Shown piece by piece: positions 5,058 through 39,178 of a DNA stretch of 39,178 nt. Position numbers and translations under genes: made by a program. The DNA comes from Deltaproteobacteria bacterium. Its GTDB lineage: Bacteria > Desulfobacterota > Desulfobaccia > Desulfobaccales > 0-14-0-80-60-11. The stretch spans positions 1 through 39,178 of the forward strand of contig VGSO01000001.1 of assembly GCA_016874945.1 (NCBI GenBank), in the 5' to 3' direction. The first letter of the stretch is position 1; each line of letters starts with the position of its first letter. Under the pieces are notes generated by a model that saw nothing but the letters and a program-made list of their open reading frames with translations, was not told the DNA's origin and made no database searches.

Positions 5058-5065
5058 AAAATAAT

Positions 5066-5141: not shown

Positions 5142-5144
5142 TCT

Positions 5145-6909: not shown

Positions 6910-7060
6910 CGGCGGGTCGCCTCATCTTCCCCGGCGGGGAAGAAAAGAAGTTCTGGCAAATTGCCGGGAGCCAAGTTCTATACCTGGAATTGCGATTAGC
7001 GGATAAAAGGCTCACCACCAAGATGGGATAGCAGCCCCCGTCCTCGCATCCGGAGGGGAG

Positions 7061-9751: not shown

Positions 9752-9813
9752 AATGAGTTAGATTACCTTCTATTTTAATTCGAAATGGTTAGAAAGTTCA
9801 GCCGCTTTTACCC

Positions 9814-10054
9814 TTATCCATATGATGATAGACCGAATAGTACATCCCTGGTCACCACCGAAACCTCGGCAATGATGCTACCCCGGCCGATTACCACCCC
9901 GGGTAGGATGGCGGATTTGCCTCCAATCCATCGCTTGCCCCGAAAGATGGGAAAGGGAAAGCCGGATAGAAAACCGCGCACTACATTGCCGGTTTTCCCG
10001 GTATAATCCCTATGATGGTATTGAACCAAACCCATAACCCCTGGCCGATATTCG
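9814..10054 (-). pseudogene. 5'-truncated, frameshifted remnant of a hexapeptide-repeat (LbH) O-acetyltransferase
   Basis: The 73-aa ORF carries only the C-terminal half (GKRWIGGKSAILPGVVIGRGSIIAEVSVVTRDV). LbH-like sequence continues upstream in another frame (NIGQGLWVWFNTII) until it meets the GT4 stop. The expected C-terminal PYSV..G.PAK-like tail appears in a shifted frame (YYSVYHH). Confidence 0.6.
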
Positions 10055-12917: not shown

Positions 12918-12942
12918 CCCATGACCTCCATGAACAAATTGC

Positions 12943-15104: not shown

Positions 15105-15114
15105 GATTATCCGC

Positions 15115-16332: not shown

Positions 16333-16333
16333 T

Positions 16334-17086
16334 TCAACGCCTGGCGTTATCTTTATGGAAGTTCCCCCGATTGAAACCCACCCCGATGATATTCGTGTGG
16401 AAGTGGCGTTCTAGCCGCTTCCCGCAGAAGAGGTAAAGGACGCGGTGAAAGAAGGTCACGGCTCCGAGGTGGATGCGGCGCACCAAGGCATGGTGCCTCA
16501 AGGGGATGATCCGGCAATCCGCCAGACCCCCCGTCTCGAGCAGTTGGATGAGGGAAAAGCTCGTAAAGGAACGCTTGTGGGTGAAGTCCATGTACCGGCT
16601 GTGGGACGCGATGATATTGGCGGCATTGGGCGCCCGGCAGATGAAGAACCCCCCGGGAATCAACGCCTGGCGGGCCGCGGTGACCCAATCGACGCAGATC
16701 TCGTCGGTGGGCAAGTGTTCCAGGACGTCATGACAGAAAATGGCAGAGAAGCCGGCAGGATGGTTCCGGAGGTGGGACAGGCCGTCATCGAGCACGATTT
16801 CTGCCTCTGGGAGGAACTGGCGGGCCGCAGCCACCATACTGGGAGACCGGTCTACCCCCACAGCAATGAGGCCCGGTTTTCGGGAGAGCCAGCAGAGAAG
16901 ATGGCCGGTGCCGCAGCCCAGGTCCAAGACCCGGCTCCCCGGGGCCAAGTGGTTTATATAAGGGCCGTAAGTGGCATCAAGGTTCCGTGCTGATGCATCC
17001 AACATGAGGCGCGGATCTACCTTATAATTTACCCGGTTATAATGGCTAAGGTAGGTTTCAGCAAACAGATCCTCATATTTGCTCAT
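16334..17086 (-). CDS. Class I SAM-dependent methyltransferase
   Basis: SAM motif I is present in VLDLGCGTGHL. A strong SD AAGGAGA lies 5 nt upstream of the ATG. Confidence 0.85.
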   Translation of the reverse strand: MSKYEDLFAETYLSHYNRVNYKVDPRLMLDASARNLDATYGPYINHLAPGSRVLDLGCGTGHLLCWLSRKPGLIAVGVDRSPSMVAAARQFLPEAEIVLDDGLSHLRNHPAGFSAIFCHDVLEHLPTDEICVDWVTAARQALIPGGFFICRAPNAANIIASHSRYMDFTHKRSFTSFSLIQLLETGGLADCRIIPLRHHALVRRIHLGAVTFFHRVLYLFCGKRLERHFHTNIIGVGFNRGNFHKDNARR

Positions 17087-17447
17087 GGGGTCTCCTTGGT
17101 GCTTGACTTTAAGGAACGACGGGCCCAGGGAAAGTCATCTGGCCAGGATCAGGACACTCTTGATCCCGGCGGCTCCTTTCAAACAAAGCGCAGTAATCTA
17201 AAATCAAAGCCATCGCAGGCCCCAGCCCCACAAATCACCTAAAAAGCCAATGGCAGCGCAATTCGGGAATCATTAGCCAATGACTCTCGCCCCCATGAGC
17301 AAACCAGGATGTCTTGCAGCTCAGTATACCCAGGTCAGGGGAACCGGGCCAGAGTCTGTCCCTATTCGCCCCGCGCCCCTGCCATCCCGCTCCCCCCGCG
17401 CTAGATATTGTCTTACTAGGTTTACTTAGGTTCGAATCTTGACCTCA

Positions 17448-18968
17448 TTAGTTGTTGTTGGATAATATCCCCTCCAAACCGGTTCTTGTTACGCCATCTT
17501 CCACCGCCTCATAGTAATTGGTCTCTATCTTAATGTCTTCCAGCAGCTCATGATAGGCCCCCAGAGCCTCGGGGGTTAGATGCGGCGCTAAGTTATGATT
17601 CTCGGACATATTGGAATTTAGGTTATAAACCTCGAGATTGCCTGGACGGTCTTCAATTATTTTGTAGCCATTCTTTGTAATTACCGCCAGGATATGGGGG
17701 TAATAGTCCACCCCCGTTTTTCTGCACAGGTTGCGCTTGGCCTCCAGTTGGGCTTTAAACTGTTCCGGTAAAACCAACTGGGCCAGGGCCAGTTCCCTCG
17801 TTTGCCCATCCAGAAGAGATAAGGAAGTCCAGGGGCGCGGCATGGGGCTGCCAATGAGGTCCAGGATGGTGGAATAGAAGTCGGTTAAGGACACCAGACG
17901 TTGGTCTTCGCCTTTCTTCCCATACTCCCGGGGAAATTTCACCACCAGGGGAACCCAGATTAACTCGTTGTAGAGAGAAAGGTAATGTCCATAATGCTCC
18001 TTTTCTCCCAGGTGCTCCCCATGGTCGCTGGTGATGATGATCAGTGTTTCATCAAAGTACTTGGTATTTTTAAAAATATCCCATAATTGTCTGATGATGC
18101 GATCCAGAAAATATATCTCATCGTCATACAAGTTTAGGTATTTTCTTATAAAGTTCTCCTTAGCAGGAGAATTTTCGGTCTTATAACAACGTAAACTACT
18201 CAGCAATTGTTTGTCATACCAATGCGAAAATTTTCTGTATCGTAAAGGTGGACGATAACGTTGATGGGCTTCAATAAAATTAATAAATATGAAAAAAGGG
18301 TGATCGTTCTGGACAATATTAGTATCAAAGATTTCGTTAAAAATCTTGACTGTATCCTTGGTAAGGCCTGATGATTTATCTATGGGGGTCGGGTTGAGCA
18401 CGCTTTGCAGACTTGATTTGGCCACCCATTGAACCAACCTGATCAATTCGCCGATCCCCCCATTCTTAGAAAAGTGCTGGAGGGAAGCTTGGCAAAAATG
18501 CCGCACCGATAATTTCCGTGTCAGCTCTATCCAAAGTTCCCTAGAACTCTCCATGGGCTTGTGTTGCATTCTATCCAGAAACTGATCAAAGAGTCCAAAA
18601 CCCAGGTCTTTAAAATAATCGAAATCCGGGCATAATCCTGAAGCGGGGGCCACCAGGCCATTGGCGGAAACACCCAGGGTTTGATAACCCGCCATCTTAA
18701 GAATGGAGGCCAGATGATGCACATTGTCCCACAGGGTCAAATTTCCCTCATAGACACCGTGCTGACTGGGGTACAAGCCGGTGAACATTGAGGCGTGGGA
18801 TGGCATGGTCCAATTGGAGGTGGCAAAGCAACGGGGATACACCATACACTCCCCCGCAATCTCCTCCAGATTGGGGGTGGTGCGTCGCGGGTAGCCATAC
18901 AGAGACAGGTGTTTGGCCCCCACCGTGTCTAGGACGATCAAGATGATATTGGGGGGCTTGGAAGTCAT
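17448..18968 (-). CDS. Sulfatase-like (alkaline phosphatase superfamily) hydrolase/transferase lacking the formylglycine motif
   Basis: The N-terminus PPNIILIVLDTVGAKHL is the metal-binding Asp region. The nucleophile motif reads T-M-P-S-H-ASMFTG (18777-18809) where sulfatases have C/S-x-P-x-R. ITSDHGEHLGE is also present. ATGA overlaps the wzx stop. Confidence 0.85.
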   Translation of the reverse strand: MTSKPPNIILIVLDTVGAKHLSLYGYPRRTTPNLEEIAGECMVYPRCFATSNWTMPSHASMFTGLYPSQHGVYEGNLTLWDNVHHLASILKMAGYQTLGVSANGLVAPASGLCPDFDYFKDLGFGLFDQFLDRMQHKPMESSRELWIELTRKLSVRHFCQASLQHFSKNGGIGELIRLVQWVAKSSLQSVLNPTPIDKSSGLTKDTVKIFNEIFDTNIVQNDHPFFIFINFIEAHQRYRPPLRYRKFSHWYDKQLLSSLRCYKTENSPAKENFIRKYLNLYDDEIYFLDRIIRQLWDIFKNTKYFDETLIIITSDHGEHLGEKEHYGHYLSLYNELIWVPLVVKFPREYGKKGEDQRLVSLTDFYSTILDLIGSPMPRPWTSLSLLDGQTRELALAQLVLPEQFKAQLEAKRNLCRKTGVDYYPHILAVITKNGYKIIEDRPGNLEVYNLNSNMSENHNLAPHLTPEALGAYHELLEDIKIETNYYEAVEDGVTRTGLEGILSNNN

Positions 18969-20443
18969 TTGATCTCCTCAAATTGGGGTTGGCGCAGCAA
19001 CCGGGCAAATTCTTCACGCATAAGTTTGGCCACCACCGCCAGATAGCCCAGAGAAAAGACCACCAGCCCCCCGATGACACCCAAATAAGGTTCAGCAATA
19101 TAGAAAAGCGCCACACCGATGATCCCGCCCACCAGTATTGCCTGGACCTTGCCGGCGAAGGCCTTGATGCCCAGATGGCGCCACACCGCCCAGCTCATCA
19201 ACAGATTGAGAGCTACGAGCCATAATGCCCTGACCCCCGCCAGGCCGGTCAGGCCATATTTCCAGGAGGTGAGGATCATCAAAGGAATACCCACTGCGGT
19301 GGAGCCGGCCTGGATGAGGGTGTAGGACCATTGGTGGCCGGTCATCGCCAGGATGTAGCCCACCGAACCGCAGGCTACGTTGAAGAGCTGGCCCAGGACC
19401 ACCAGGCGCAGGGCCCACTTAGCCTCCACAAATTCCATCCCGAAGAATTGGAGCAGGTCGGCGGCCATGAGGAGACCCACCAGGGATAAGGGCAGGGCCA
19501 AGGAAAAAGTCCAGCCCGCCGTGGCCCGGGCCAACGACTCCAGTCCGGCATGGTCTTGCCAGTGATAAAATTTGGCAAACAGCGGCGGGACCACGGCATT
19601 AATGGCCACCAAGGGAAAGACCACCAGGCTGGCGGTCTTGATGGCGGCCTCATAGTAGGCCACCTTTTCCGGGGTGTTGAAAAGCCCCAGGATGAGGTTG
19701 TCCCACGAACTCATGGAGAGCATGATAATGGAACTTAAAAAGAGAGGCCAACTATAGCGCATCAGTTCACGGAACGAATTCTCCCGGGCGTAAGTTTGGC
19801 ACTTCAAATCCACCCTGAGCTTCACTCCCAGGAAGACCAAACCCAGGACATTGCTTAATAACAGGGCCAATCCCAGGGTCCTGGCGGGCAAAATCACCTG
19901 GGGAACCAGAAAGGCGGGGAGGGTGGCTAAAACCAACATAAGCAGAGGGGTTAAAATACTGTACTGAAAGATTACCCAACGGACCCCTCCCAAGGCTCTA
20001 ATGGTCTCCCGGAACATAAAGGCCGCCACGATGACCGGGAGGGCAAATGCGGCAAAGGTCAACATGGTGGGCAGTTGGGGAGCGTGAAACCGGTGCGCCA
20101 GCCAGTCGCCCAAAAAAAATATCACCAGAGTAAGCACCCCGCTCAACGAGGTTGCCAGGAAGAGAGCCGGCCATAACAGGCGCTGGGCATCTCCGGCCTT
20201 TCCTTTGGCTTGCAGCTCGGCGACAAAACGCAGGATCCCCTGGTCCAACCCCAAACGGCAAAAAACCGCGATGGTTAAGAGCAAATTGGCCACAATGGAA
20301 TAGGTGCCCAGCAGTTGGGCCCCATAAAGACGCGCCACCATCAAAGGTATAAGGTAGGCGATGGGCACGGCCAAGATTTTGAAGCTGAAAACGACCAGGG
20401 AGTCGGTGGCTGTCTGCTTCAGGATAGAGGAAAAAGAAGCCAT
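18965..20443 (-). CDS. wzx: Oligosaccharide flippase (Wzx, MOP superfamily)
   Basis: 492-aa ORF with about 12-14 TM segments and a typical polysaccharide biosynthesis protein N-terminus. The start immediately follows the upstream stop (TAAATG). Confidence 0.85.
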   Translation of the reverse strand: MASFSSILKQTATDSLVVFSFKILAVPIAYLIPLMVARLYGAQLLGTYSIVANLLLTIAVFCRLGLDQGILRFVAELQAKGKAGDAQRLLWPALFLATSLSGVLTLVIFFLGDWLAHRFHAPQLPTMLTFAAFALPVIVAAFMFRETIRALGGVRWVIFQYSILTPLLMLVLATLPAFLVPQVILPARTLGLALLLSNVLGLVFLGVKLRVDLKCQTYARENSFRELMRYSWPLFLSSIIMLSMSSWDNLILGLFNTPEKVAYYEAAIKTASLVVFPLVAINAVVPPLFAKFYHWQDHAGLESLARATAGWTFSLALPLSLVGLLMAADLLQFFGMEFVEAKWALRLVVLGQLFNVACGSVGYILAMTGHQWSYTLIQAGSTAVGIPLMILTSWKYGLTGLAGVRALWLVALNLLMSWAVWRHLGIKAFAGKVQAILVGGIIGVALFYIAEPYLGVIGGLVVFSLGYLAVVAKLMREEFARLLRQPQFEEIK

Positions 20444-21130
20444 TTAGAAATATCCCATGCCCCTTAACCGTTTCATGATCTCCTCTTTGCGTTGATCCCG
20501 GCCCACCCTTTCGGCGCCGCCGGGAATGCCCTTTTTTGTGCAAGGCTCACATCCCAGGCTCCGGTAGCCCCGGCGGTAAAGGCTGGAATAAGGCACCTGG
20601 AAATCGTTAATGTATTGCCAGATATCCATCTCGGTAAAATGCAAGATAGGGTGGACCCTGATATGAGGGGGAGCTTCCCGGAGAGCAAAATACTCTTCCT
20701 TTTGCCGTTCCGGTTGTTCATCCCAACGCATGCCGGTGATCAATGCCTGCCAGCCATAGGTGACGATGGATTTGGCAATCATCTCCACCTTTAGCCTGAA
20801 GCAGCATTCTTCTTTATCTTCCGCAATCTTGAGGGATTTTAGGGCTTCGTCATTACGAACAATGATGAGGTTCAAGTTCCATTCCTGGGCCAGGCGGTCA
20901 CGAAACTCATAAATTTCTTTAAATTTTACGCCCGTATCGATATTCAACACGGGTATGGGGACCTGGCCGCCGCACAAATCCCGGAGCAGATGCAAGGTAG
21001 TGGTGGAATCTTTGCCTCCAGTCCAGGCCAGGGCTATTTGGCCCGGGAACTTGGCCAGGGCTTCTTTCAAGACTTCTTTGCTTTTGGCAATCTTGCTGTC
21101 GAGGTTATTAATGTCCATTCTCCCTTCCAT
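20444..21130 (-). CDS. PAPS reductase/CysD-superfamily PP-loop protein (hybrid of sulfate adenylyltransferase subunit 2 and APS reductase features)
   Basis: PP-loop WTGGKDS lies at 21005-21022. LNIDTGVKFKEIYEFRDR and a C-terminal ...GYF resemble CysD. EECCFRLKVE and SLGCEPCT resemble Fe-S APS reductases. No C-terminal ECG[LI]H is present. Confidence 0.85.
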   Translation of the reverse strand: MEGRMDINNLDSKIAKSKEVLKEALAKFPGQIALAWTGGKDSTTTLHLLRDLCGGQVPIPVLNIDTGVKFKEIYEFRDRLAQEWNLNLIIVRNDEALKSLKIAEDKEECCFRLKVEMIAKSIVTYGWQALITGMRWDEQPERQKEEYFALREAPPHIRVHPILHFTEMDIWQYINDFQVPYSSLYRRGYRSLGCEPCTKKGIPGGAERVGRDQRKEEIMKRLRGMGYF

Positions 21131-21182
21131 TTACTCGAATATTTATAGCGATTGCCAAAAGTTTTTTCCGATTGTTTTTTGA

Positions 21183-21242
21183 CGTAGGGGGCACAGCGTG
21201 CTGTGCCCCTGTACCTTGGGCACGGCGAGCCGTGCCCCTACG
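21183..21242. repeat. Twin GC-rich hairpins (GGGGCACAG/CTGTGCCCC and GGGCACGGC/GCCGTGCCC) bracketed by CGTAGGGG...CCCCTACG
   Basis: Direct reading. It lies in the 229-nt gap between the wzc stop and the next gene's start. It looks like a REP-like element or an intra-operon RNA structure. Confidence 0.7.
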
Positions 21243-21359
21243 GGAAAATTACTTTGGGCAACCCCTATAATAGAATGTTCAGATGAATGCAAATAAAGAC
21301 CTCTTTCCAACTGCTCCTTGGCAAGCCAGTAAATTGCGGCGCCCCAGGTTGCCGGTGAG

Positions 21360-23630
21360 TTATTGCCGGCCTGGCCGGGATTCATCCGAAAGCTCGCCTT
21401 TACCGGATTTTGCAGCGTCGCCATAGTATTTTTGGTAATCCCTGTAGTAGCCGTAGTAGCCGCCATATCCCACGCGAGTCATGGTCAAAATGCCGCCCAG
21501 GATGCGGGTGTGGTTCTGGGTCAACAGTTGGATGGCCAGGCGTCCGATTTCCCGGGTGGTGAAATGGTGTTTGACCACGAACAGGACCCCGTCCACGAAA
21601 GTGGAAATCGTCCGGCCATCGGCAAAACCAATTATGGGGGGGGAATCAATGATGACGTTTTGGTATTCTCTACGGAGATGATTTAAGAGGTTTTCAAAAA
21701 CCGCAGAACTGAAAAGTTCATTGGGGTTGGGTGGAGTTGGCCCCGCCGGAATAAAATATAGGTTAGGTATATCCGTGGGGCGGATAATGTCCTCTAACGC
21801 GGCGGTGCCGGTGAGGTAGTTGGTCAGACCGGGACGGAGGGGCTGATCAAGGACTTGATGAATTCTGGGCTTCCGAAGATCACAGTCCAAGATGACGCAT
21901 CGGCGGTCAGAACCGGCCAACACCGCGGCCAGATTTAAACAAACCGTGGTCTTGCCCTCTGCGGGGCCGCCGCTGGCGATCATGAGGACTCTGGGCGCGG
22001 ACCCTGAGGCTGAGAGTAAGATGGACGTGCGGATGTGTTGGATGGCTTCGCCCATCATCGACATAGGATTGTTATAAGCCATAAGTTCAAAGGGGTTTGT
22101 GGTGGTCGAGGGCAACTTTCGGGAATCGGCGGTGATCATGGGAAGTTTCCATGAATCGGCGCTGACCAGGGGAATCACTCCCAAAGAAGGGATGTGGCAG
22201 ATCTTTTCCATTTCATCGGTGGTCTTGATGGAGTCATCCAGATATTCTACGAAGAAGGCGGTCCCCACACCGAACATGGATCCAATGACCCCGGCCAGGG
22301 CCAGAAACAACAACAATTTGGGGATCCAGGGCTCGTACGGCTCTTTGGCCGGGGTGATTACCGACACGTTGCTGGCCACCATGGTGCTGGCCACGCTGGC
22401 CTCTTTCATGCGGGCCAGCAAGCCTTCATAAAGGGTCTGGTTGGTTTGCAGGTCGCGCTTTAAGACGTGGTGATGCACCAGGAGGTTCTGCAGGTCTATA
22501 ACCCTGGCTTTTTGGAGGTTGTATTCCTGTTGCAGTAAAGCTTCGGCGCGGGAGGCCGCTTCGAAATCCGCCTTGATGCTGGCCTCGAGACGCCTGACCT
22601 CCTGGGCGAGACGCAGACGCAGATCTTTCATCCTGGCGGTAATGGCCGAGTATTCAGGGAATTTGGAGCCGAATATCTTACTTTGTCCGGAAACCGAGGC
22701 CTCGAGGTCAATCAGCGACTGGCGCAATTGAGTGATCAAAGGATGGTTGGTGATCAACGGCGCATCCGCGCCTTTTTCCTTGATCTGGCGATACTGCGCC
22801 TCTTTATTGGCCTTTTCCGCCTGGGCCACGGTCAATAATTTACTCACCTCAATGTACTTCCTGACGACCACGTTTTCCTCGGATCCTTCCAGGGACAAAA
22901 AGTCTTGTTGCTGGCCATGGCCGTAAAGGGTTTTTTCCGAATCTTCCAACTTCCGACCCAGGCGGACAAGCTCCTTATCCAACCATTCCCTCAGCGTGGT
23001 ATAGGACTGCTCCCGGGCGACCATGGCGAGTTTCAGATATTCTTTGGGAATGACTTCCGTGACTTTCCAGGCCAGATTTTTGTCCGTGGATTTATACGAG
23101 ACGTCCACCAGAAATGAATTTTTAGTCGGCTCCACCGTCAGGTTGTCATACATATATTTGGCGTACTTCTCTCGAATAACCCAGGGGGGGTCTTTGGGGT
23201 ACTGTTGTTCCATCTCCTTGTAAGAGGGATGTTCCTTGAGGTTAAGGGTGTCCATGATCCTCAGAAGGATAGTGGGACTTTTCAAGATGCTGTACTGGGT
23301 TTCATAGAACCTATCAATTGAGCTGCTGGCGGTTAAAGCTCCCAGGGGGTCGGAACTTGTCCCTCCCATGATGGCCGAAGGGTTGTCCTGGATGATTTGA
23401 ATGGTGGTGGTGACTTTAAAAATGGGCGACATCAGTAAGCACACCAATAAGGTAGTGGCCACTATCGCCAGCATCACGCCGAGACACCACCACTTGCGCT
23501 TTTTAATGATATTCCAGTAATCCCGTAAATTAGAGGCCTGCTCAAACTCGGTCTTGTAATAAGTTTCCAGTGTCGCCGGCATGGATGGGGAGGTTGACAT
23601 TGGCATCAGACTCTGGGCATCGTTTGGCAT
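21360..23630 (-). CDS. wzc: Polysaccharide co-polymerase / BY-kinase (Wzc/GumC-type tyrosine autokinase)
   Basis: 756-aa ORF. An N-terminal Wzz-like domain with a coiled-coil region precedes Walker A GGPAEGKTT (21945-21971). The C-terminal Tyr cluster GYGGYYGYYRDYQKYYGD lies at 21423-21467. Confidence 0.92.
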   Translation of the reverse strand: MPNDAQSLMPMSTSPSMPATLETYYKTEFEQASNLRDYWNIIKKRKWWCLGVMLAIVATTLLVCLLMSPIFKVTTTIQIIQDNPSAIMGGTSSDPLGALTASSSIDRFYETQYSILKSPTILLRIMDTLNLKEHPSYKEMEQQYPKDPPWVIREKYAKYMYDNLTVEPTKNSFLVDVSYKSTDKNLAWKVTEVIPKEYLKLAMVAREQSYTTLREWLDKELVRLGRKLEDSEKTLYGHGQQQDFLSLEGSEENVVVRKYIEVSKLLTVAQAEKANKEAQYRQIKEKGADAPLITNHPLITQLRQSLIDLEASVSGQSKIFGSKFPEYSAITARMKDLRLRLAQEVRRLEASIKADFEAASRAEALLQQEYNLQKARVIDLQNLLVHHHVLKRDLQTNQTLYEGLLARMKEASVASTMVASNVSVITPAKEPYEPWIPKLLLFLALAGVIGSMFGVGTAFFVEYLDDSIKTTDEMEKICHIPSLGVIPLVSADSWKLPMITADSRKLPSTTTNPFELMAYNNPMSMMGEAIQHIRTSILLSASGSAPRVLMIASGGPAEGKTTVCLNLAAVLAGSDRRCVILDCDLRKPRIHQVLDQPLRPGLTNYLTGTAALEDIIRPTDIPNLYFIPAGPTPPNPNELFSSAVFENLLNHLRREYQNVIIDSPPIIGFADGRTISTFVDGVLFVVKHHFTTREIGRLAIQLLTQNHTRILGGILTMTRVGYGGYYGYYRDYQKYYGDAAKSGKGELSDESRPGRQ

Positions 23631-23810
23631 AGCGCTTATCCTTGCTGATCCGGAATCTCAGACCCTTTAGCCAAGGGTCAAATTTCTGGGGCGGCAGTTA
23701 ATCTGGCCATGGAGTGTTAGGTTACCAAACCTCCAGGCCGCGGCAAAATCCAGGTCAACGTTTCCTGATTTTTCAGGAAAAGACCGCTACGGCTGGCGTC
23801 CAGCCTTTAT

Positions 23811-24854
23811 TTACAACATGGCCGGGATGCCCGCGCCGACGGCGCCGGGGTTAAACATCTTTAAGTCGAAGAGAAACCGGCGCATCCCACTTTCATGCAC
23901 GAATACAATGTCATTTTCCTTGAGGGGCACGTCGGGTTCATGTCCCTTGGTGATAGAGGCGATGTTAATGGGAATGGTCTGGCGCTGGCCATTCTCATCC
24001 ACCCTTAAAATGGTGGCGCTGTTGGAAGCCAGTATTATGTGCTGACCCCCTGCTTGGGCCACCGCCTTGGTCACCGTCATATTGTTCTTGACAGGGACCT
24101 CCCCCGGCTTGTGAACCGCTCCCAGCACAAAGGCGAGATTGGCAAAGGGAACATGGATCACATCCCCGTTCTGGATAGGATAATTCAAATCCACCGCTCC
24201 CTTGAGCAACAGCCGATTTAAATCCACCACCACAGTCTCCGTGCCCGGGGAAAAAGACGAGACGCCACGGGGGGAGGATGATCCTTTCTGGGAGCGGATT
24301 ATATGCGCCACTTCGCCGGCCTTGTCGGAGAGTCCGCCGGCCATCCCCAGCACCTCCAGCAGGTAGCGGGGTCCTATGAGGGCATAATGATCAGGTTTGT
24401 TAACCGCGCCGGTGACGGCCACCTTCTGGTGGCGGAATTCTTTGACGGATACCCTGATTTGAGGGTTCTTGAGAATATCTTCTTCTTTGTATAATTGGAC
24501 CAGCTTCTTTTCAATTTCGTTGGTGGTTAAACCTCCCACCTTGAGTATCCCCACCAGAAGCAGACTGATTTCACCCTGCCCGTTGACCCGGATCTCTGCA
24601 CGCAGCTTGTCGGTGTCCAGGAAATTGATTTCCAGGAGATCCTCCGGGCCGACTTTATAATCTTTAAAATCCACGGCGGAGACCTGGGCCTGGGCCACCT
24701 GCTTTAACAACTGCTCCTGGAGGCGGTTTTTGGCCTGGGAGTCCGCCTGGGCCATGATCTGCGGGGGCGGCAGCTGGGCTCCGGGGCCGCCGCAACCCAA
24801 TGCTCCCAGCAAGATGCCCAAAAACGCCGCCAACCAAGATTTCCCCAATTTCAT
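23811..24854 (-). CDS. wza: Outer-membrane polysaccharide export lipoprotein (Wza-like, Poly_export + SLBB domains)
   Basis: ATG at 24854 (MKLGKSWLAAFLGILLGALGC, lipobox-like) has AGGAA 7 nt upstream, and an alternative ATG lies at 24869. PEDLLEINF and NGDVIHVP motifs are present. Confidence 0.9.
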   Translation of the reverse strand: MKLGKSWLAAFLGILLGALGCGGPGAQLPPPQIMAQADSQAKNRLQEQLLKQVAQAQVSAVDFKDYKVGPEDLLEINFLDTDKLRAEIRVNGQGEISLLLVGILKVGGLTTNEIEKKLVQLYKEEDILKNPQIRVSVKEFRHQKVAVTGAVNKPDHYALIGPRYLLEVLGMAGGLSDKAGEVAHIIRSQKGSSSPRGVSSFSPGTETVVVDLNRLLLKGAVDLNYPIQNGDVIHVPFANLAFVLGAVHKPGEVPVKNNMTVTKAVAQAGGQHIILASNSATILRVDENGQRQTIPINIASITKGHEPDVPLKENDIVFVHESGMRRFLFDLKMFNPGAVGAGIPAML

Positions 24855-24947
24855 TTTACGGTTCCTCATAAAGCTTGTGTAAACTCCCCCCCATCGGGGG
24901 ATTAACCTAAATATTTCACCTCATAGTCTTAAGCCGGTTTCTGATAA

Positions 24948-32861: not shown

Positions 32862-33476
32862 CTATCGGACCAGCCGCCAGGCCACCCAGGTGAAACTCCC
32901 CTCGGGGGGCATCTCGATAACCCATTCATCTTGAGTGGCGCGGCGCCTCCGGGACCAGCCCATTTTCCGGTAAAGGGTTAGGAGCTCTTCCTCCTGGGTG
33001 TCCTTGAAACCGGAAAGGATCAAGGCGGCCCCCGGCGCGGCCAATCGGGACAGTTCCGCGGCTTTGGCCAACTGCACCGGGAGGGGCAGGTTGGCCATGA
33101 TCAGCGGGAAACTGCCTTTGATGGCCTCGGTGGACCCCTGGACCACGGGAACCTGTCTTTCCAACCCATTCCTCCGGGCATTGTCCCGGGAGACCTGCAC
33201 CGCTTGCGAGCTAAGATCCACTCCCACGCAGAAGGGAGCGCCCAGGGCCGCGGCGGCCAGGGCCAGGATGCCGGAGCCGCACCCCACGTCCAGGACCGGG
33301 GCGCCGGGGTGTTCGGTCAAAGTTGCGGCCAGCAGTTGCAGGCAAAGGCGGGTGGTGGGGTGGCTGGGCGGAAAGACCTGGGGCGCTTGCAGCACCAGGA
33401 CCCGCTCGCCCCGGCGGGGAAAGTATGGCCGCCAGGGAGAGCGCAGCACCAGGCCGGGGGTGAGGCGGTGGAACAT
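32862..33476 (-). CDS. PrmA-like class I SAM methyltransferase (ribosomal protein L11 methyltransferase family) lacking the usual N-terminal domain
   Basis: HPTTRLCLQLL, VLDVGCGSGILALAAAALGA and VGVDLSSQAVQVSRDNARRNGL are present. At 204 aa it is short of the roughly 290 aa typical for PrmA. No clear SD. Confidence 0.7.
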   Translation of the reverse strand: MFHRLTPGLVLRSPWRPYFPRRGERVLVLQAPQVFPPSHPTTRLCLQLLAATLTEHPGAPVLDVGCGSGILALAAAALGAPFCVGVDLSSQAVQVSRDNARRNGLERQVPVVQGSTEAIKGSFPLIMANLPLPVQLAKAAELSRLAAPGAALILSGFKDTQEEELLTLYRKMGWSRRRRATQDEWVIEMPPEGSFTWVAWRLVR

Positions 33477-33548
33477 GGGGGCACTTTAGCACAACATGGG
33501 GGGATTTGCTATTTGGGCTTATGTTGTGGGTTGGCTTCTGGCGTTGAC

Positions 33549-33594
33549 TCAATTCCTGACGCCAAGACGCGAAGGATTAAAGATGCAAGGAAAG
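33549..33594. repeat. Copy B of the dispersed ~40-nt element (tcaattcctgacgccaagacgcgaagg..atgcaaggaaag)
   Basis: It aligns with 5762-5799 with a 7-nt insertion. Confidence 0.6.
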
Positions 33595-33702
33595 TCGCCA
33601 AGGGCCTTGACCGTGCTTAGCTTTTTGGGTAAGAATAGACGCATTGGGAAAAGCCCCTGATTATTCATGACTTATTTATATGTAGGTTTATTATCATTTC
33701 AA

Positions 33703-34182
33703 ATGGAAAAGATTTTACTAACCCGGGCCGGTTATGAGAACCTTCTCCAGGAACTGGACCTGTTGAGCCAGGTGGAGCGGCCCCAGATTGTCCAGGAATT
33801 GCAGGAAGCCGCCCATGGCGGCCGGCTGGAGAAGAATCCGGACTACCAATCGGCCCTGGCCCAGCGGCAGAAAGTGGACCGCCGCATCCGGCACATCCAG
33901 CAGATACTGGCCAACGCCGAAGTCCTGGTGGGCAGCAACGTCAATCCTACCCGGGTGGGATTCAACTGCCGGGTCCGGGTCCGGAACCTGGGCGCCGGCC
34001 AGGAGAAGGAATTCAAGATAGTCAGCGCGGTGGAGGCGGACGCGGCCCGGGGTCTCATCTCCAAGACCGCGCCTCTGGGCCGGGCTTTGCTGGGCCGGGG
34101 TCCGGGCGAGCGGGTTACGGTCAAGACGCCTGGAGGGTTCCGGACGTACCAGATCCTGACCATTGAGATGGAAGAGCTGTGA
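33703..34182 (+). CDS. greA: Transcription elongation factor GreA
   Basis: MEKILLTRAGYENLLQELDLL forms the coiled-coil N-domain, and the C-terminal domain has ISKTAPLGRALLGRGPGERV. ATG at 33703 is preferred over 33667. Confidence 0.88.
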   Translation: MEKILLTRAGYENLLQELDLLSQVERPQIVQELQEAAHGGRLEKNPDYQSALAQRQKVDRRIRHIQQILANAEVLVGSNVNPTRVGFNCRVRVRNLGAGQEKEFKIVSAVEADAARGLISKTAPLGRALLGRGPGERVTVKTPGGFRTYQILTIEMEEL

Positions 34183-34186
34183 GGCC

Positions 34187-34291
34187 GGTTTCAGGGGTCA
34201 GGTTTCAGGTTTCAGGTTTCAGGTTTCAGGTTTTAGGTTTCAGGTTTTAGGTTTTAGGTTTCAGGTTTCAGGTCTTAGGTTTCAGGTTTTA
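34187..34291. repeat. 15-unit tandem heptamer array (GGTTTCA / GGTTTTA, with GGGGTCA and GGTCTTA variants)
   Basis: Direct reading. It starts 5 nt after the greA stop. The 34163..34366 ORF in the track is a translation artefact of this array. Confidence 0.95.
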
Positions 34292-34534
34292 GTTAAAAGA
34301 AATCAGCTATTTAAATCTATAAAAATCAATAATGTAGAACAGCCGCCCGCGTCTGTTCAATATTAGTTCAACCGTCAGGTGGAGCTTTCTGGCCGATTTT
34401 TGAAAATCTCAGTTTGCCGCTTGTAGATAAAACGATGAGTATAATCGTTTAATTTAACATGAGAGTTGCAGTATTTGAAATTGCAAAAAATAAGCCACAT
34501 AATAAGTTTTAGAAACTTCGGAGAGACAACTAGG

Positions 34535-35476
34535 TTGAACGACCACACTCACTCCCATCCCCACCCCCACCGCCTGAGCAGCCGCCGCCGCCTGGCCGTG
34601 GCCTTTTGGACCCAGGCCGCGTTTTTCGTGGTGGAGCTGGTGGGGGGGCTGCTTACCAACAGTCTGGCTTTGCTGGCGGATGCGGGCCACATGCTCAGCG
34701 ACGTGGGGGCCTTGGGCCTAAGCCTCCTGGCTCTGCACTGGGCCGGCAAGCCGCCCACTCTCCGCAAGACCTACGGCTACCACCGCCTGGAAATTTTGGT
34801 GGCGCTGGTCAACGGCCTCATCTTGTGGGGCATGGCGGCCTACATACTTTACGAGGCCTATCTGCGGTTTTATCAGCCGCCGGCCATCAGCGGCTTTCCC
34901 ATGCTGATCATCGCCTCCCTGGGGCTCCTGGTGAACCTCCTGGGAATGTTCGTCCTTTTCCCCCACCGGGAGCACAGCATAAATATCCGTTCCGCGTTTC
35001 TCCATCTGCTGGCCGACTCCCTGGGTTCGGTGGCAGCCATCGCCGCCGGCGCGGCCATCCTGTGGCAAGGCTGGTACTGGTTCGACCCCCTGGCCGGCGC
35101 GGTGGTGGGGGTGATGATCATCGTGGGAAGCTGGCAACTGGTCTGGGAGGCCGGGGATATTTTGCTGGAAGCTACACCCAAACATATCGACCTGGGGCAG
35201 GTGCAGGCGGCCCTGGAAGCCCATCCCGGAGTGTCCCACGTGCACGATCTCCACGTGTGGACCATCGCGTCGGGCATTTATGCCCTGAGCGTGCATGTGG
35301 GGGTGGACGGCCGGAATGACCGGGACTGCCTCACCCGGGAGCTGGAAGAATTGGTGCGGCAGCGCTTCGGACTGGAACATGCCACCATCCAGACGGAAGG
35401 CCCGGATTATCAAAATCCCCGGGTATGCCCGTTGCATCCCCTAGCAGAAGCAAACTCCAAGCACCACCACGATTGA
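34535..35476 (+). CDS. Cation diffusion facilitator (CzcD/ZitB-type Zn/Co/Cd efflux)
   Basis: An N-terminal His-rich segment (HTHSHPHPH) is present, with the TM2 motif LLADAGHMLSD, the TM5 motif HLLADSLGS and a C-terminal His tail. There is no in-frame ATG before TM1. TTG at 34535 has GGAGAG 9 nt upstream, and the alternative at 34466 is also TTG. Confidence 0.88.
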   Translation: MNDHTHSHPHPHRLSSRRRLAVAFWTQAAFFVVELVGGLLTNSLALLADAGHMLSDVGALGLSLLALHWAGKPPTLRKTYGYHRLEILVALVNGLILWGMAAYILYEAYLRFYQPPAISGFPMLIIASLGLLVNLLGMFVLFPHREHSINIRSAFLHLLADSLGSVAAIAAGAAILWQGWYWFDPLAGAVVGVMIIVGSWQLVWEAGDILLEATPKHIDLGQVQAALEAHPGVSHVHDLHVWTIASGIYALSVHVGVDGRNDRDCLTRELEELVRQRFGLEHATIQTEGPDYQNPRVCPLHPLAEANSKHHHD

Positions 35477-35496
35477 CCTGTAGCTGAGGAGGAGAC

Positions 35497-37944
35497 ATGT
35501 CTCAAAGCACGTGGGAATTGAAGCCGGAAAATCTGCGCGCCGTTTGTGACCCGGATTCTTTGGGATTCGAAACCACCCTGGACCTCACCCCCTTGAAAGA
35601 GAAAGTGGTGGGCCAGGATCGGGCAGTGACCGCGCTGGAGTTCGGCCTGGGGATCAAGGACCTGGAATATAATATCTTCGTGGCCGGGCCGCCCCGGGCC
35701 AATAAGACGGAAACCATCATGGCCTATGTGTCCGAGCTGGCCGCGGGCATGCCGGTGCCGCCGGATTATATCTATGTTCACAACTTCAAAGACGGGGACC
35801 GTCCCCAGGCCCTGAGCCTGCCCGCGGGCCAGGGCCGGGTTCTAAAGGCGGACATGGAGGATCTCATCGCCACCCTGCGGGTGCGGATCCCCGAAGTCTT
35901 CGAGAGCGAAGATTACTCCAGCCGGCGGGAATCCCTGGTGCACGGCTTTACCCAGGAACGCAACGCCATCCTTCAGGAACTGGACGCCAAGGCCACCGAG
36001 GAGGGCTTTATCCTCAACATCTCCCCCACGGGCTTGATGATTTTCCCGGGACGGGAGGGCAAACCCATGAGCGAGGAAGAGCTCAAGGCCCTGAATGACG
36101 AGGAACGGGAAGCCCTGCGCACCAAGTCCAGCGCCCTGCACACGGAGATGAATGAAGCCATCCGCCGCATCCGCAAGATGGAAAAAGAGTTTCAGGAGAA
36201 GGAAAAGAAGTTGGACCAGGACGTGGCCCTGTACGTGGTGGGCCATCTCATGGAAGAATTGCGGGAAAAATACAAGAACTTGCGCCAGGTTCTGGAGTAC
36301 TTTAAGGAGGTGCAAGAGGAGATTCTCAAAAATATCGATGAGCTGAAGCGCCGCCCCGGCGCGCCCACCCCTTTTCCCTTTCCCACCCCGGAGCCGACGT
36401 TCACCCAGTACCAGGTGAACGTGCTGGTGGATAACTCGAAGACCAAAGGCGCGCCGGTAATCCTGGAGGGCAACCCCACCTATCCCAATATCTTCGGCGC
36501 GGTGGAACGCCGGGCCCAGTTTGGCGCCCTGGTCACCGACTTTACCCTGATCCGCCCCGGGTCTCTGCACCGGGCCAATGGGGGGTTCCTGATCCTGGAA
36601 GCCCTGCCCCTGCTCCGCTGGTATTTCTCTTACGAGGCATTGAAGCGCTGCCTCAAGGATGGAGAGATCAAGATCGAAGACCTGGCGGAGCAAATCGGCC
36701 TCATCAGCACCCGGGCCTTGCAGGCCCAGCCAATCTCCCTGGACATCAAGGTCATTATCATCGGCGATCCTTATATTTATCAGCTTCTTTATATTTACGA
36801 CGAAGACTTCACCAAGCTCTTCAAGATCAAGGCCCACTTCGACTGGCGGATGCGCCGGACCGACGACCACGTGGAGAAGTTCTCCGCCCTGGTGGCGGGC
36901 TACTGTCAGGAGCACAAACTGATGCCGGTGCACAAAACCGGCATGGCCCGCCTGGTGGAATACGCCGGGGAACTGGCCGGCCACTCCAAGAAGCTCACCC
37001 TGCAGCTCAAGGAGGTCCTGGACGTCCTCAAGGAAGCCAATTTCTGGGCCCGGAGCAACACCCATGAAGTCATTTTCGGCTCCGACGTGGAGAAGGCCAT
37101 CCGGGAAAAGATTTACCGCTCCGACCTGCCGGAAGAAAAGATGCAGGAGTTCATCGACGAAGGCATGCTCTTTATCGAAACCGCCGGCGATGTGGTGGGG
37201 CAGGTTAACGGCCTGTCGGTTTACATGCTGGGGGACCATGCCTTTGCCCGCCCCAGCCGCATCACCGCCACTGTCTCCCTGGGCAAAGAAGGGGTGGTGG
37301 CCATCGACCGGGAGGCCCAACTGGCCGGGAACATCCATAACAAGGGGGTATTGATCCTATCAAGCTATCTCCGGAGCCGCTTCGCCCAGGACAAGCCGCT
37401 GACGTTGTCCGCCAGCCTCACCTTTGAGCAGAGTTACGGCATGGTGGAAGGGGACAGCGCCTCCTGCGCCGAATTAATCGCCCTCCTGTCAGTCCTGGCC
37501 GAGGCGCCTCTCAAGCAGAACATCGCCCTCACCGGCTCCGTGAGCCAGCGGGGCGAGGTGCAGCCCATCGGCGGGGTAACCTGGAAGGTCGAAGGCTTCT
37601 ACAAGGTCTGCAAAGCCCGGGGGCTGGACGGCGTCCAGGGGGTCGTCATCCCCAAGGTCAACGTCCAGGACCTGATGTTGGACCGGGAGGTGGTGGACGC
37701 GGTCAAGGAAGGCAAGTTCCACGTCTGGGCCGTGGGCCACGCGGACGAGGCTCTGGAACTCTTAACCGGCCTGCCCGCGGGAAAGCGCCTGGAGGATGGG
37801 ACTTGGGAACCGGACACCGTCAACTTTAAAGTGGACCAAAAACTGCGTCAGATAATGGAACTGGCCCGGGAGCTGATGAAGGGCGAGGAGGAAAAGAAGA
37901 GTCCCAGCCCGCCGCCGGCGTCTTGTCCGGAGTGCGGCAAGTAA
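35497..37944 (+). CDS. Lon-like protease of the LonC/LonB-like type, with an AAA-like domain carrying a long helical insertion
   Basis: SD GAGGAGGAG is present. The P-loop is GPPRANKT (35686-35709) and the Walker-B region is GGFLILEA. A coiled-coil-like insert spans about residues 115-300. The S16 protease Ser motif GDSAS lies at 37450-37464 and the Lys in IGGVTWK. The protein ends with CPECGK. Confidence 0.88.
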   Translation: MSQSTWELKPENLRAVCDPDSLGFETTLDLTPLKEKVVGQDRAVTALEFGLGIKDLEYNIFVAGPPRANKTETIMAYVSELAAGMPVPPDYIYVHNFKDGDRPQALSLPAGQGRVLKADMEDLIATLRVRIPEVFESEDYSSRRESLVHGFTQERNAILQELDAKATEEGFILNISPTGLMIFPGREGKPMSEEELKALNDEEREALRTKSSALHTEMNEAIRRIRKMEKEFQEKEKKLDQDVALYVVGHLMEELREKYKNLRQVLEYFKEVQEEILKNIDELKRRPGAPTPFPFPTPEPTFTQYQVNVLVDNSKTKGAPVILEGNPTYPNIFGAVERRAQFGALVTDFTLIRPGSLHRANGGFLILEALPLLRWYFSYEALKRCLKDGEIKIEDLAEQIGLISTRALQAQPISLDIKVIIIGDPYIYQLLYIYDEDFTKLFKIKAHFDWRMRRTDDHVEKFSALVAGYCQEHKLMPVHKTGMARLVEYAGELAGHSKKLTLQLKEVLDVLKEANFWARSNTHEVIFGSDVEKAIREKIYRSDLPEEKMQEFIDEGMLFIETAGDVVGQVNGLSVYMLGDHAFARPSRITATVSLGKEGVVAIDREAQLAGNIHNKGVLILSSYLRSRFAQDKPLTLSASLTFEQSYGMVEGDSASCAELIALLSVLAEAPLKQNIALTGSVSQRGEVQPIGGVTWKVEGFYKVCKARGLDGVQGVVIPKVNVQDLMLDREVVDAVKEGKFHVWAVGHADEALELLTGLPAGKRLEDGTWEPDTVNFKVDQKLRQIMELARELMKGEEEKKSPSPPPASCPECGK

Positions 37945-38053
37945 TGCAAGCAGTCAGCAGTCAGCTAGAGAAAAACATGATAAAAGGGTGATTCCCCTGG
38001 CTACTGGCAGCCGGCGGCTGGCTGCCAAAACACTTTCGGAGGTATGCTCATTC

Positions 38054-38821
38054 ATGAAACCGGCCAGGTTTCTTCTATCATGCGCCGTTTTCCTGGCAGT
38101 ATCCGCCTGTCCCCTGTTCGCCGCGGCCCCTGGAGGGCCGGGGCTCTCCGCCGACGAAGCCCTGAAGCTGCTCAAAGACGGCAACGCCCGCTATGTGGAG
38201 GGCAAGGCCCAGCATCCCAACCAGACCCGGGAGCGCCGGGCCTTGACCGCCGGCCAGGGCCAGAAGCCCTTTGCCTCGGTGCTTTCCTGCTCCGATTCCC
38301 GGGCGCCGGTGGAAATTCTCTTCGACCGGGGCGTGGGTGACATTTTAGTAAGCCGGGTGCCCGGCAACGTCGTCGGGGTGAATGAAATGGGCGCCATGGA
38401 ATACGGAGTGGAGTATCTTAGTACACCCCTGGTGCTGGTCCTGGGCCACAGCCAGTGCGGCGCGGTCTCTGCAGTGGTGGAAGGGGTCAAGTTGCCCGGC
38501 CACATGGCGGCCCCGGTGAAGCCCATCCAGCCGGCGGTGAGCAGGGCCAAGGCCGATAACCCCGGGGTTTCCGGCGAAGCCCTGGTGAATGCGGCCGTCA
38601 AGGCCAATGTCTTCCAGGCCATGGAAGATCTGCTGCAGAAAAGCAGCATCATCAAAGGCAAAGTGAAGGCGGGGAAGGCCCGGGTCATGGGCGCCCTTTA
38701 CGAGCTGGACACCGGCCAGGTGCAATGGCTGGGGTCCCATCCCAACCAGGACAAACTGTTGGGCCTGCCCAAACCGGGTAAGCCGGCGCCCGCGAAGAAA
38801 AAAGGGAGGGATAGGGAATAG
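38054..38821 (+). CDS. Beta-class carbonic anhydrase with a signal peptide/lipobox
   Basis: CSDSR and HSQCG zinc-ligand motifs are present. ATG at 38054 (MKPARFLLSCAVFLAVSAC) has GGAGG 11 nt upstream. Confidence 0.88.
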   Translation: MKPARFLLSCAVFLAVSACPLFAAAPGGPGLSADEALKLLKDGNARYVEGKAQHPNQTRERRALTAGQGQKPFASVLSCSDSRAPVEILFDRGVGDILVSRVPGNVVGVNEMGAMEYGVEYLSTPLVLVLGHSQCGAVSAVVEGVKLPGHMAAPVKPIQPAVSRAKADNPGVSGEALVNAAVKANVFQAMEDLLQKSSIIKGKVKAGKARVMGALYELDTGQVQWLGSHPNQDKLLGLPKPGKPAPAKKKGRDRE

Positions 38822-38897
38822 GGATTAGGTTTCAGGTTTCAGGTTTTAGGTTTTAGGTTTTTTACCGTTTTCGGTTTTCGGTCTTCGGTTTTCGGTT
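38822..38897. repeat. Compound heptamer array: GGTTTCA x2, GGTTTTA x2, GGTTTTT, then CGGTTTT CGGTCTT CGGTTTT CGGTT
   Basis: It starts at the base after the carbonic anhydrase stop. It combines the family seen at 34187 with the family seen at 5066-5141. Confidence 0.9.
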
Positions 38898-38965
38898 AAA
38901 ATAAATAAGATTTATCAATAAGTTACAGGTTGAGTTTGTTGCACCTGAAAGCGGACACGGTATTA

Positions 38966-38993
38966 GGGGTCAGGTTTCAGGTTTTAAGGTCAG
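38966..38993. repeat. Short heptamer array GGGGTCA GGTTTCA GGTTTTA AGGTCAG
   Basis: It has the same GGGGTCAGGTTTCAGGTTT opening as 34194-34212. Confidence 0.8.
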
Positions 38994-39083
38994 AGACCAG
39001 GATTGTTGGCTATTAATGGATATAAGCCCCTATCACTACAACGTTAATTACCCGCCTGCTTCAGTACAACCCTTTGTATTTAT

Positions 39084-39139
39084 TGTCATTCTGAGCGCAG
39101 CGAAGAATCTAGACCCTTCGCCTACGGCTCAGGGTGACA
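39084..39139. repeat. Extended hairpin element TGTCATTCTGAGC-GCAGCGAAG...CTTCGC-...GCTCAGGGTGACA
   Basis: The outer 13-nt arms pair with two G-U positions and the inner GCGAAG/CTTCGC pair is perfect. The motif GTCATTCTGAGCG.AGCGAAGAATC looks to me like a dispersed repeat recurring in many bacterial genomes, but that is memory, not verified. Confidence 0.55.
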
Positions 39140-39178
39140 TAACTGATTGTCAGTAATATCCAATGGTTGTCCTATCAT

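Follow-up and report, generated by a model that had tools for sequence, protein, structure and literature searches.

Intergenic heptanucleotide arrays in a Desulfobaccales-like contig: probable slippage-driven simple sequence repeats at gene boundaries

Downstream of the greA gene of a deltaproteobacterial contig, 15 tandem units of 7 nt occupy the spacer that precedes a CDF transporter gene, and further arrays of the same period lie between other genes of this contig. These arrays raise the question of whether they are functional elements of the transcripts, such as terminators or protein-binding platforms, or simple repeats that spacers tolerate. The window, i.e. the whole stretch of DNA analysed here, corresponds to 39,178 nt of contig VGSO01000001.1 (assembly GCA_016874945.1, forward strand). 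Its arrays are most likely (probability of about 0.6) intergenic heptanucleotide simple sequence repeats (SSRs) of the short tandemly repeated repetitive (STRR) or long SSR (LSSR) type, driven by slippage and filtered by transcript selection, any function of theirs being putative. This class of heptamers is already known, and the window extends it to Thermodesulfobacteriota.

Period-7 arrays between genes

Tandem Repeats Finder (TRF) detects period-7 arrays at 1-53, 81-144, 5066-5090, 5110-5141, 6516-6535, 6572-6593, 34187-34289, 38807-38897 and 38970-38984. A lag-match census of the window, independent of TRF, identified eight runs with period 7, periods 4-6 and 8-12 yielding none; no period-7 run arose when the window was simulated 50 times under a first-order Markov model. 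All the sites named in the original prediction, which had been made from the sequence alone, were thereby recovered, except that two of its arrays are each two arrays: 5066-5141 is an inverted pair and 6517-6593 includes a 36-nt gap. The window arrays therefore display head-to-tail 7-nt units beyond chance expectation, as the LSSR class does, with a density of about 10 per 39 kb (for the window only).

All these arrays are located between open reading frames (ORFs), the single overlap with a gene being at 38807-38821, in the last carbonic anhydrase codons. The proposal that most of them begin next to a stop codon holds for all five arrays found downstream of genes. Indeed, the gap between stop and array is 0 nt at position 1, 3 nt after the rubrerythrin gene, 0 nt after the NUDIX gene and 4 nt after greA, and the last array overlaps the end of the carbonic anhydrase gene. 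If starts were uniform within spacers, the chance of all five adjacencies would be about 1e-7 according to our own rough estimate.

As previously read from the sequence, several unit families recur: GGTTTCA/GGTTTTA at 34187, 38828 and 38973; CGGTYTT at 5110-5141 (minus-strand reading), with its complement at 5066-5090, and again at 38865-38897; and (A/G)GTGAGC at 1-28 and 6516-6537. At least eight unrelated units are present within 39 kb. The claim that different families are joined without loss of the 7-nt register is verified at 1-56 and 81-143, where variant units keep the register, and is not at 38862-38865, where a 3-nt phase slip separates GGTTTTA from CGGTTTT (TRF gives 8% indels for this region).

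Contigs 99.4-99.8% identical to the window were found in several metagenomes of the Joint Genome Institute (JGI), which are probably Lake Tanganyika samples. The original prediction had called for a comparison of array lengths between strains, and lengths do differ in 7-nt steps between near-identical ones. Downstream of greA, 15 units are present in the window versus 7 in four assemblies (L001-L004) with identical flanks, and the array between the rubrerythrin and MBL-fold genes is one unit shorter in L124. The region that follows the carbonic anhydrase gene exists as two haplotypes, each found in two assemblies. One of them (L001/L002) harbours an uninterrupted 17-unit array; the other one (window/L003) carries an inserted CGGTTTT array, absent from L001/L002, and about 70 nt of unique sequence. 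The units at 38966-38993 are continuous with the array starting at 38807 in the L001 haplotype. The arrays at 6516-6593 and 1-143 are invariant between near-identical strains. Copy number thus changes in multiples of 7 nt between close relatives, as is characteristic of LSSRs, the copy numbers being those of short-read metagenome assemblies.

Similar arrays are widespread. At least 119 stretches from species-representative genomes (GTDB loci, among which the source genome does not figure) contain (GGTTTCA)3, for an estimated 0.3 or so chance matches. They belong to Bacteroidota, Acidobacteriota, Desulfobacterales, Planctomycetota, Verrucomicrobiota, Chloroflexota, Leptolyngbya, Aliivibrio and Wenzhouxiangella, and three of these genomes are closed isolate genomes. 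The 119 loci include 310 period-7 arrays that represent 137 canonical heptamer units, and no protein family recurs near their arrays. In one collection, 30 stretches contain (GGTTTCA)3 and 27 a composition-matched permutation of it; a second permutation is present in 10 and the published TAACTGA unit in 107. In this collection, the permutation controls rule out GGTTTCA as a privileged cross-phylum unit; together with the 137 units, they also mean that the recurrence of a small number of families is no sign of a specific recognition. Given these controls and the lack of a recurrent neighbour, the unit sequence is not decisive and no linked enzyme is indicated. Period 7 also leads in clade loci retrieved by protein homology, not by their repeats, with 72 distinct arrays, followed by period 8 with 33.

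Among the cross-phylum loci, 111 of the 132 GGTTTCA-family arrays are intergenic, and their orientation relative to co-directional genes is balanced (31 sense, 35 antisense). Those of them that adjoin a stop codon are nevertheless mostly in the G+T-rich sense orientation. A strand polarity also appears when arrays of any heptamer located at most 10 nt from a stop codon are considered, the sense strand being the G+T-rich one in a ratio of 51:9. A stricter rule, independent of start calls, gives 52:27 overall, 30:10 without GGTTTCA and 39:8 when a stop codon precedes the array. Inverted pairs, counted by a strict ungapped criterion (the counts of a permissive detector were not plausible, with three pairs for the window alone), carry the G+T-rich arm first in a ratio of 55:7 (30:5 without GGTTTCA), a configuration that is identical on both strands. 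On the G-rich strand, the ORF 5' of an array is 12-30 nt away and the next ORF 82-165 nt away, according to longest-ORF calls. Such calls are distorted by the GTG/TTG codons of G+T-rich units and the TGA of A+C-rich ones, which biases start distances and start-side polarity; therefore, only stop-side statistics are relied on. A single polarity rule emerges: a transcript reaches the G+U-rich arm before the A+C-rich one, which adjoins the next start codon. All window arrays comply with this rule, and most of the exceptions in the clade are period-8 CACAAAGA...TCTTTGTG arrays on either side of canonical G+C-rich terminators.

The greA array and the repeat-armed hairpins

In two relatives (L384 and L385, GreA 91% identical), the 54-nt greA-CDF spacer consists of TGA, 6 nt, (GGTTTCA)3 GGTTTTA, a Shine-Dalgarno sequence and a TTG start; in L384, 20 nt separate the array from the start of the following gene, which has the same orientation. 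In L389 (GreA 87% identical), the units are GTTTTAA GTTTTGA GTTTTCA and precede a flank homologous to window positions 34292-34316. In L390 (GreA 71% identical), the two genes overlap without any spacer. Exact searches with the RimO and CDF proteins retrieved no further allele of the greA spacer. The focal array is therefore an orthologous element that persists within a subclade, its copy number in the greA-CDF spacer being 3, 4, 7 or 15, and it looks as if it lies within a greA-CDF-lonC operon.

A stretch of about 205 AT-rich nt (34317-34520), absent from the relatives, separates the flank of the window array from the ribosome-binding site of the CDF gene. Within it, 34374-34393 resembles a terminator hairpin and 34475-34503 a promoter, and an ancestral greA-CDF operon may thereby have been split. 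The CDF gene starts at the TTG at 34535, preceded by the Shine-Dalgarno-like GGAGAGA; the starts at 34466 (longest ORF) and 34475 (JGI gene call) were set aside. As for greA itself, its ORF in the window, which starts at 33667, encodes 171 aa versus 159 aa in GreA homologues, and the real start is therefore probably about 12 codons 3' of 33667 (region 33667-33702).

The focal array has folding energies of -5.5 and -0.1 kcal/mol on the two strands (z -0.03 and 0.91), and a terminator scan found no terminator-like site on 34187-34291. Being unfolded as RNA on either strand and without terminator call, it is not an intrinsic terminator, contrary to the termination role initially suggested. The array that follows the carbonic anhydrase gene likewise shows no fold (z 0.75) and no site in the terminator scan. 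The focal array is best read as a lone, unstructured, transcribed and tolerated spacer with no demonstrated function of its own. A role in mRNA 3' structure, also proposed initially, may concern inverted array pairs, which alone form strong hairpins.

The pair located between the rubrerythrin and MBL-fold genes folds as a 25-bp stem of -43.3 kcal/mol (z -7.2). Compared with an intrinsic terminator, it has the stem, a loop of 25 nt and the tail AUUAUUUU, which leads from the 3' arm to the ATG of the MBL-fold gene. In the related species L300, the same spacer carries a CAGTGAN/TCACTGN inverted pair (-53 kcal/mol, z -7.7). Among 59 distinct orthologous rubrerythrin-MBL spacers taken from metagenomes, 40 contain a tandem array and 34 its inverted complement too, and more distant relatives have short, plain spacers. 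The 34 repeat-armed spacers involve 15 different units, with period 7 in 20 cases, period 8 in 13 and period 6 in one, and 17 of 53 orthologous spacers fold at z below -3. The complementarity of the arms may have been kept by selection or by template-switch conversion between arms, both being candidates. The sense strand is more stable than the antisense strand in 44 of 58 spacers, as selection on RNA through G-U wobble pairs would predict; since dinucleotide shuffles are equally biased (-4.9 versus -4.1 kcal/mol, p = 0.17), this excess is considered compositional and is not counted.

Many repeat-armed hairpins are not followed by a U-tract, and those of L306, L308 and L319 are G+C-rich with a T-run before the next gene. 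The window pair is most likely a putative intercistronic RNA stem that would protect 3' ends or serve in processing or attenuation, at the junction of the rubrerythrin and MBL-fold genes. More generally, paired arrays are best read, by analogy, as putative intercistronic stems that would work like repetitive extragenic palindromes (REPs). The spacer downstream of the NUDIX gene offered no second set of orthologues for such a comparison, another gene being directly adjacent in most relatives.

A class of 8-nt units (CACAAAGA / TCTTTGTG) was also observed, inverted and with the A+C-rich arm first, in L300 (10665-10810), L301 and L306, 3' of the NUDIX gene. These arrays flank canonical G+C-rich intrinsic terminators and thereby lengthen their stems; a weaker version is present in the window at 4195-4303, around a terminator at 4227-4254.

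Table 1. Arrays and associated features of the window (positions in nt)
Feature	Position	Strand	Units and context	Basis
G+T-rich heptamer array	1-56	+	AGTGAGC-type (1-28), in-register shift to GTTGGCT-type (29-56); the TAA of an upstream 305-aa gene ends at position 1 (seen in L302/L303)	TRF, sequence
A+C-rich heptamer array	81-143	+	AAACTCA x4, (A/C/T)AACTGT x4, CAACTCA, single register; adjoins the rimO ATG at 144; identical in L302/L303, decayed in related species L300	TRF, sequence
Repeat-armed hairpin	5066-5140	-	Rubrerythrin stop to MBL-fold start; 5' arm CGGTTTT x4.5 (5110-5141), loop, 3' arm GACCGAA x3 (5066-5090)	Fold, one-unit polymorphism, recurrence in relatives
Short G+T-rich array	6516-6544	+	GTGAACG GTGAGCG GTGAGCA GTAAACA, from the NUDIX stop codon; invariant in L124 and L302	TRF, sequence
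Short A+C-rich array	6572-6593	+	AACCCGC x3; weakly complementary to 6516-6544, fold no better than shuffles (z 0.4)	TRF
Focal array	34187-34291	+	15 units, 4 nt past the greA stop, GGTTTCA/GGTTTTA plus single GGGGTCA and GGTCTTA variants; in the greA-CDF spacer, without inverted partner	TRF (14.7 copies, score 157)
Remaining greA-CDF spacer	34292-34534	+	Conserved flank, AT-rich stretch, GGAGAGA	Comparison with L384 and L389
Carbonic anhydrase-end array	38807-38862	+	AGGGAAT-type, GGTTTCA x2, GGTTTTA x2, GGTTTTT; AGGGAAT-type units at 38807-38821 encode the C-terminal residues (…GRDRE*) and the TAG stop (38819-38821)	TRF, sequence
CGGTTTT-family array	38865-38897	+	CCGTTTT CGGTTTT CGGTCTT CGGTTTT CGGTT	Sequence
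Short array	38966-38993	+	GGGGTCA GGTTTCA GGTTTTA AGGTCAG	Sequence, haplotype comparison

The arrays coexist with an ordinary bacterial gene set, encoding RimO, a polyprenyl synthase, an MBL-fold protein, rubrerythrin, a NUDIX protein, multicopper oxidases, PrmA, GreA, a CDF transporter, LonC and a beta-carbonic anhydrase (Table 1 gives the boundaries of the arrays). For RimO and GreA, the best relatives that carry a name come from Desulfobaccales, Thermodesulfobacteriota or 'Deltaproteobacteria' metagenome-assembled genomes, and the host is therefore not a cyanobacterium, as had been suspected; it is a Desulfobaccales-like Thermodesulfobacteriota bacterium. A long exopolysaccharide cluster (7061-24869), in which TRF finds no period-7 array, encodes a sulfotransferase, a sulfatase and a PAPS reductase-family protein, hinting at a sulfated polysaccharide. 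Rfam 15 gives no match over the whole window at gathering thresholds and none at E <= 1 in 38800-39178.

The right end of the window (39037-39178) diverges from L001 (from its position 15275 onward) and contains imperfect internal repeats, GTCATTCTGAGCGCAGCGAAGAATC ... GACCCTTCGCCTACGGCTCAGGGTGAC. One of its 24-mers recurs in two related loci (L365, 703-726; L382, 513-536), and this segment therefore looks like a small dispersed inserted element. Just past the point equivalent to 39036, around 15250-15300 of L001, the array that follows the carbonic anhydrase gene is succeeded by CCCCTATCACCTATTCCCTAATCCC, which resembles, by eye, the inverted complement of the AGGGAAT/AGGGATT units found at the stop codon. 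There may thus be a long-range pair, G+T-rich arm first, around the whole L001 array.

Origin of the arrays and competing explanations

If the arrays are slippage-driven repeats, a chance tandem duplication would be followed by growth and shrinkage through replication slippage and unequal exchange between units. Units altered by point mutation would be amplified again, leading to the in-register gradients between 'families'. Arrays would survive only between genes, because a 7-nt unit is intolerable in coding sequence, and the loss of useless spacer DNA by deletion would leave them flush with stop codons. Selection on transcripts would then filter orientation, G+T-rich arrays being tolerated past stops and A+C-rich ones ahead of starts. 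Such a filter could reflect the avoidance of GUG/UUG and Shine-Dalgarno-like motifs before starts, and of unpaired C-rich, G-poor RNA past stop codons. As a consequence, inverted pairs would carry the G+T-rich arm first and would fold into long hairpins.

Various points weigh against this scenario. Slippage is deduced from array lengths and not from direct observation; moreover, an array of 105 nt may be shortened by short-read assembly, and no contig other than that of the window shows the 15-unit allele. Strand-symmetric slippage predicts neither polarity nor stop adjacency, so that selection or another mechanism must be added; yet the folding test for selection at the RNA level failed its dinucleotide-shuffle control. 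The persistence of an array in the 54-nt spacer of L384, like the retention of the hairpin architecture through unit turnover, could mean function instead of tolerance. Finally, the scenario does not account for the preference for 7 nt, and secondarily for 8 nt.

A more ambitious version, which we regard as improbable although worth stating, is that slippage-made heptamer and octamer arrays are the raw material of a phylum-spanning transcript punctuation, in which a G+T-rich post-stop arm pairs with an inverted A+C-rich pre-start arm, the arms stay complementary through the replacement of their units and the G+T-first order is selected. If so, this order might be advantageous because the C-rich arm would be paired once made, for example hidden from Rho, or because it would give ribosomes and RNases an ordered access. 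A REP-like function would then arise without any transposase.

A comparably low probability is attributed to the arrays being cis-regulatory platforms, whose units in untranslated regions would be read by S1, a cold-shock or a CsrA-like protein and whose copy number would set the strength of the effect. Such a role has been proposed for TAACTGA repeats located before Beggiatoaceae start codons (PMC4679880), and a preprint describes modest effects on a reporter, from 1.5- to 2.9-fold, in both E. coli and Nostoc upon deletion of the heptamers upstream of Nostoc recO (bioRxiv 10.1101/2022.06.06.494920). The rimO leader is suggestive in this respect, since it ends with TAACTGT TAACTGT CAACTCA ATG (region 109-146) and shows no evident Shine-Dalgarno motif directly 5' of the ATG (AACTGTCAACTCA); the polarity of arrays relative to genes shows that transcripts matter, and the greA array is retained in the compact operon spacer of L384. 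However, a single sequence-specific reader is unlikely for units so diverse, both in the window and at one orthologous spacer, where there are 15 of them. GGTTTCA is no better than its permutation, orientation relative to co-directional genes is balanced, and the window revealed no candidate binding protein, nor does any recur beside arrays. That all sites would be transcription terminators or mRNA 3'-end stabilisers is unlikely. The coincidence of array starts with stop codons, the long stems of inverted pairs, the T-runs that follow the G+C-rich hairpins of L306, L308 and L319 and the enrichment of Xanthomonas transcript ends at heptamers able to form guanine quadruplexes (PMC4692102) would all fit, but the focal and post-carbonic anhydrase arrays are unfolded and devoid of terminator calls, many repeat-armed hairpins lack a U-tract, the L384 array closely precedes a co-oriented gene and lone A+C-rich arrays are found directly 5' of start codons.

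The strain-to-strain differences in copy number, together with the presence of an exopolysaccharide cluster in the window, could evoke contingency (phase-variation) loci, where slippage toggles neighbours through promoter spacing or reading frame. This is quite doubtful, since no array lies inside a reading frame except for the last carbonic anhydrase codons, no sigma-70-like site overlaps an array (1-7000 and 33400-39178 scanned), the neighbours are housekeeping genes (greA, rimO, rubrerythrin, NUDIX) and the exopolysaccharide cluster is free of TRF period-7 arrays. An origin from a dedicated enzyme or mobile element, whether related to REPs and their associated tyrosine transposases (RAYTs), to miniature inverted-repeat transposable elements or to a reverse transcriptase-type adder, would account for dispersed, extragenic and sometimes palindromic arrays and for one unit being shared by distant phyla. 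It is nevertheless very improbable: Pfam detects neither transposase nor reverse transcriptase among the 29 window ORFs scanned, no neighbour recurs in the 119 loci, neither terminal inverted repeats nor target duplications were seen at array edges, and orthologous spacers display a gradual turnover of units, not insertions present or absent, as if any heptamer were suitable. Assembly or sequencing artefacts, which the original prediction had listed as something to check, have hardly any credit left. It is true that the window begins where an array begins, that contig L002 terminates within an array, as short-read contigs tend to do, and that short reads can misjudge copy number. However, identical arrays with identical variant units recur in independent assemblies of different samples, and GGTTTCA arrays are present in the closed isolate genomes of Flavobacterium anhuiense (CP158861), Stieleria (CP036432) and Singulisphaera (CP155447).

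Slippage filtered by transcript selection is therefore preferred, with several implications. The gene-boundary rules of Xanthomonas and Nostoc heptamers extend to arbitrary units across many phyla, and repeat-armed hairpins can persist at one spacer through unit replacement. Combined with a unit that is not special, this favours a structure or a process over sequence-specific recognition. A testable polarity rule follows from array placement. Heptamers are the most over-represented long SSRs in many bacteria. There is also a practical side: arrays break short-read assemblies and can be used as strain markers.

Relationships with known repeats

The canonical STRR1-3 units are CCCCAGT, TTGGTCA and CAACAGT, STRR heptamers having reportedly been described in heterocystous cyanobacteria by Mazel et al. 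in 1990. STRRs are dispersed over the whole genome in hundreds of copies. None of the three units is arrayed in the window. The window arrays share with cyanobacterial STRRs the amplification of tandem heptanucleotides at many dispersed non-coding sites and the presence of several unit families per genome. The likeness initially noticed is thus real as regards placement, families and tandem anatomy; as units and host differ, the arrays are not canonical STRRs.

In enterobacteria, REPs and bacterial interspersed mosaic elements are extragenic, often intercistronic palindromes, whose RNA stems can protect the upstream mRNA. REPs are fixed palindromic units of about 35 nt spread by RAYT transposases. 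The paired arrays, extragenic and stem-forming as well, may act in a similar way. Unlike REPs, their stems are made of tandem 7- or 8-nt units whose sequence varies with locus and lineage; no conserved palindrome unit and no RAYT-like gene were seen in the window or recurring near arrays. A CRISPR array was rejected, since the units are contiguous and 7 nt long, versus repeats of 24-48 nt with unique spacers of similar length.

Heptamers are not confined to heterocystous cyanobacteria, having been published for Xanthomonas, Nostoc, Beggiatoaceae, Bacteroidetes and Chloroflexus (PMC4692102, PMC4679880, PMC6749651). For Calothrix PCC 7601, the STRR report is cited in PMC4692102. In Chloroflexus, they take the form of heptamer-derived satellites (Subirana and Messeguer 2019, PMC6749651). 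According to Mrazek (2007), as quoted in PMC4679880 and PMC4692102, heptanucleotides are the commonest long SSRs, and 7 nt possibly matches a polymerase contact, which would favour slippage. In marine Beggiatoaceae, some Cyanobacteria and Bacteroidetes, TAACTGA arrays directly precede start codons devoid of Shine-Dalgarno sequence and are mixed with other heptamers; strains are distinguished by indels of 7 nt, and contigs break off within arrays (MacGregor 2015, PMC4679880). The window unit is TAACTGT and thus falls outside this family: its two copies (123-136) end 7 nt before the rimO ATG, with one mismatch per unit. Furthermore, the window arrays mostly follow stop codons, whereas TAACTGA repeats precede start codons.

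The heptamers of Xanthomonas (GGGAATC) and Nostoc (GGGGA(C/T)T) are 89-93% intergenic (Rehm et al. 2015, PMC4692102). Their distance to the 5' ORF is about 28 nt, versus about 160 nt to the next one, regardless of ORF orientation; coding-strand repeats adjoin or overlap stop codons, 70-75 repeats are arranged as convergent inverted pairs, and location is kept between related species with variable length (PMC4692102). In Xanthomonas, transcripts start or stop at the quadruplex-capable repeats more often than at control repeats (PMC4692102). The arrays described here have in common with them the intergenic location, the proximity to the 5' ORF, the adjacency to stops, the inverted pairs and conserved sites of variable length. 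Orientation is balanced there (30% and 35%) as it is here (31:35). The main units, GGTTTCA and CGGTTTT, have only G2 tracts, and GGGGTCA variants are sparse, so that quadruplexes are considered unlikely. Whereas Xanthomonas and Nostoc have one dominant quadruplex-capable unit, the present arrays combine many unrelated units in a Thermodesulfobacteriota host and, unlike them, undergo wholesale unit replacement at one orthologous spacer.

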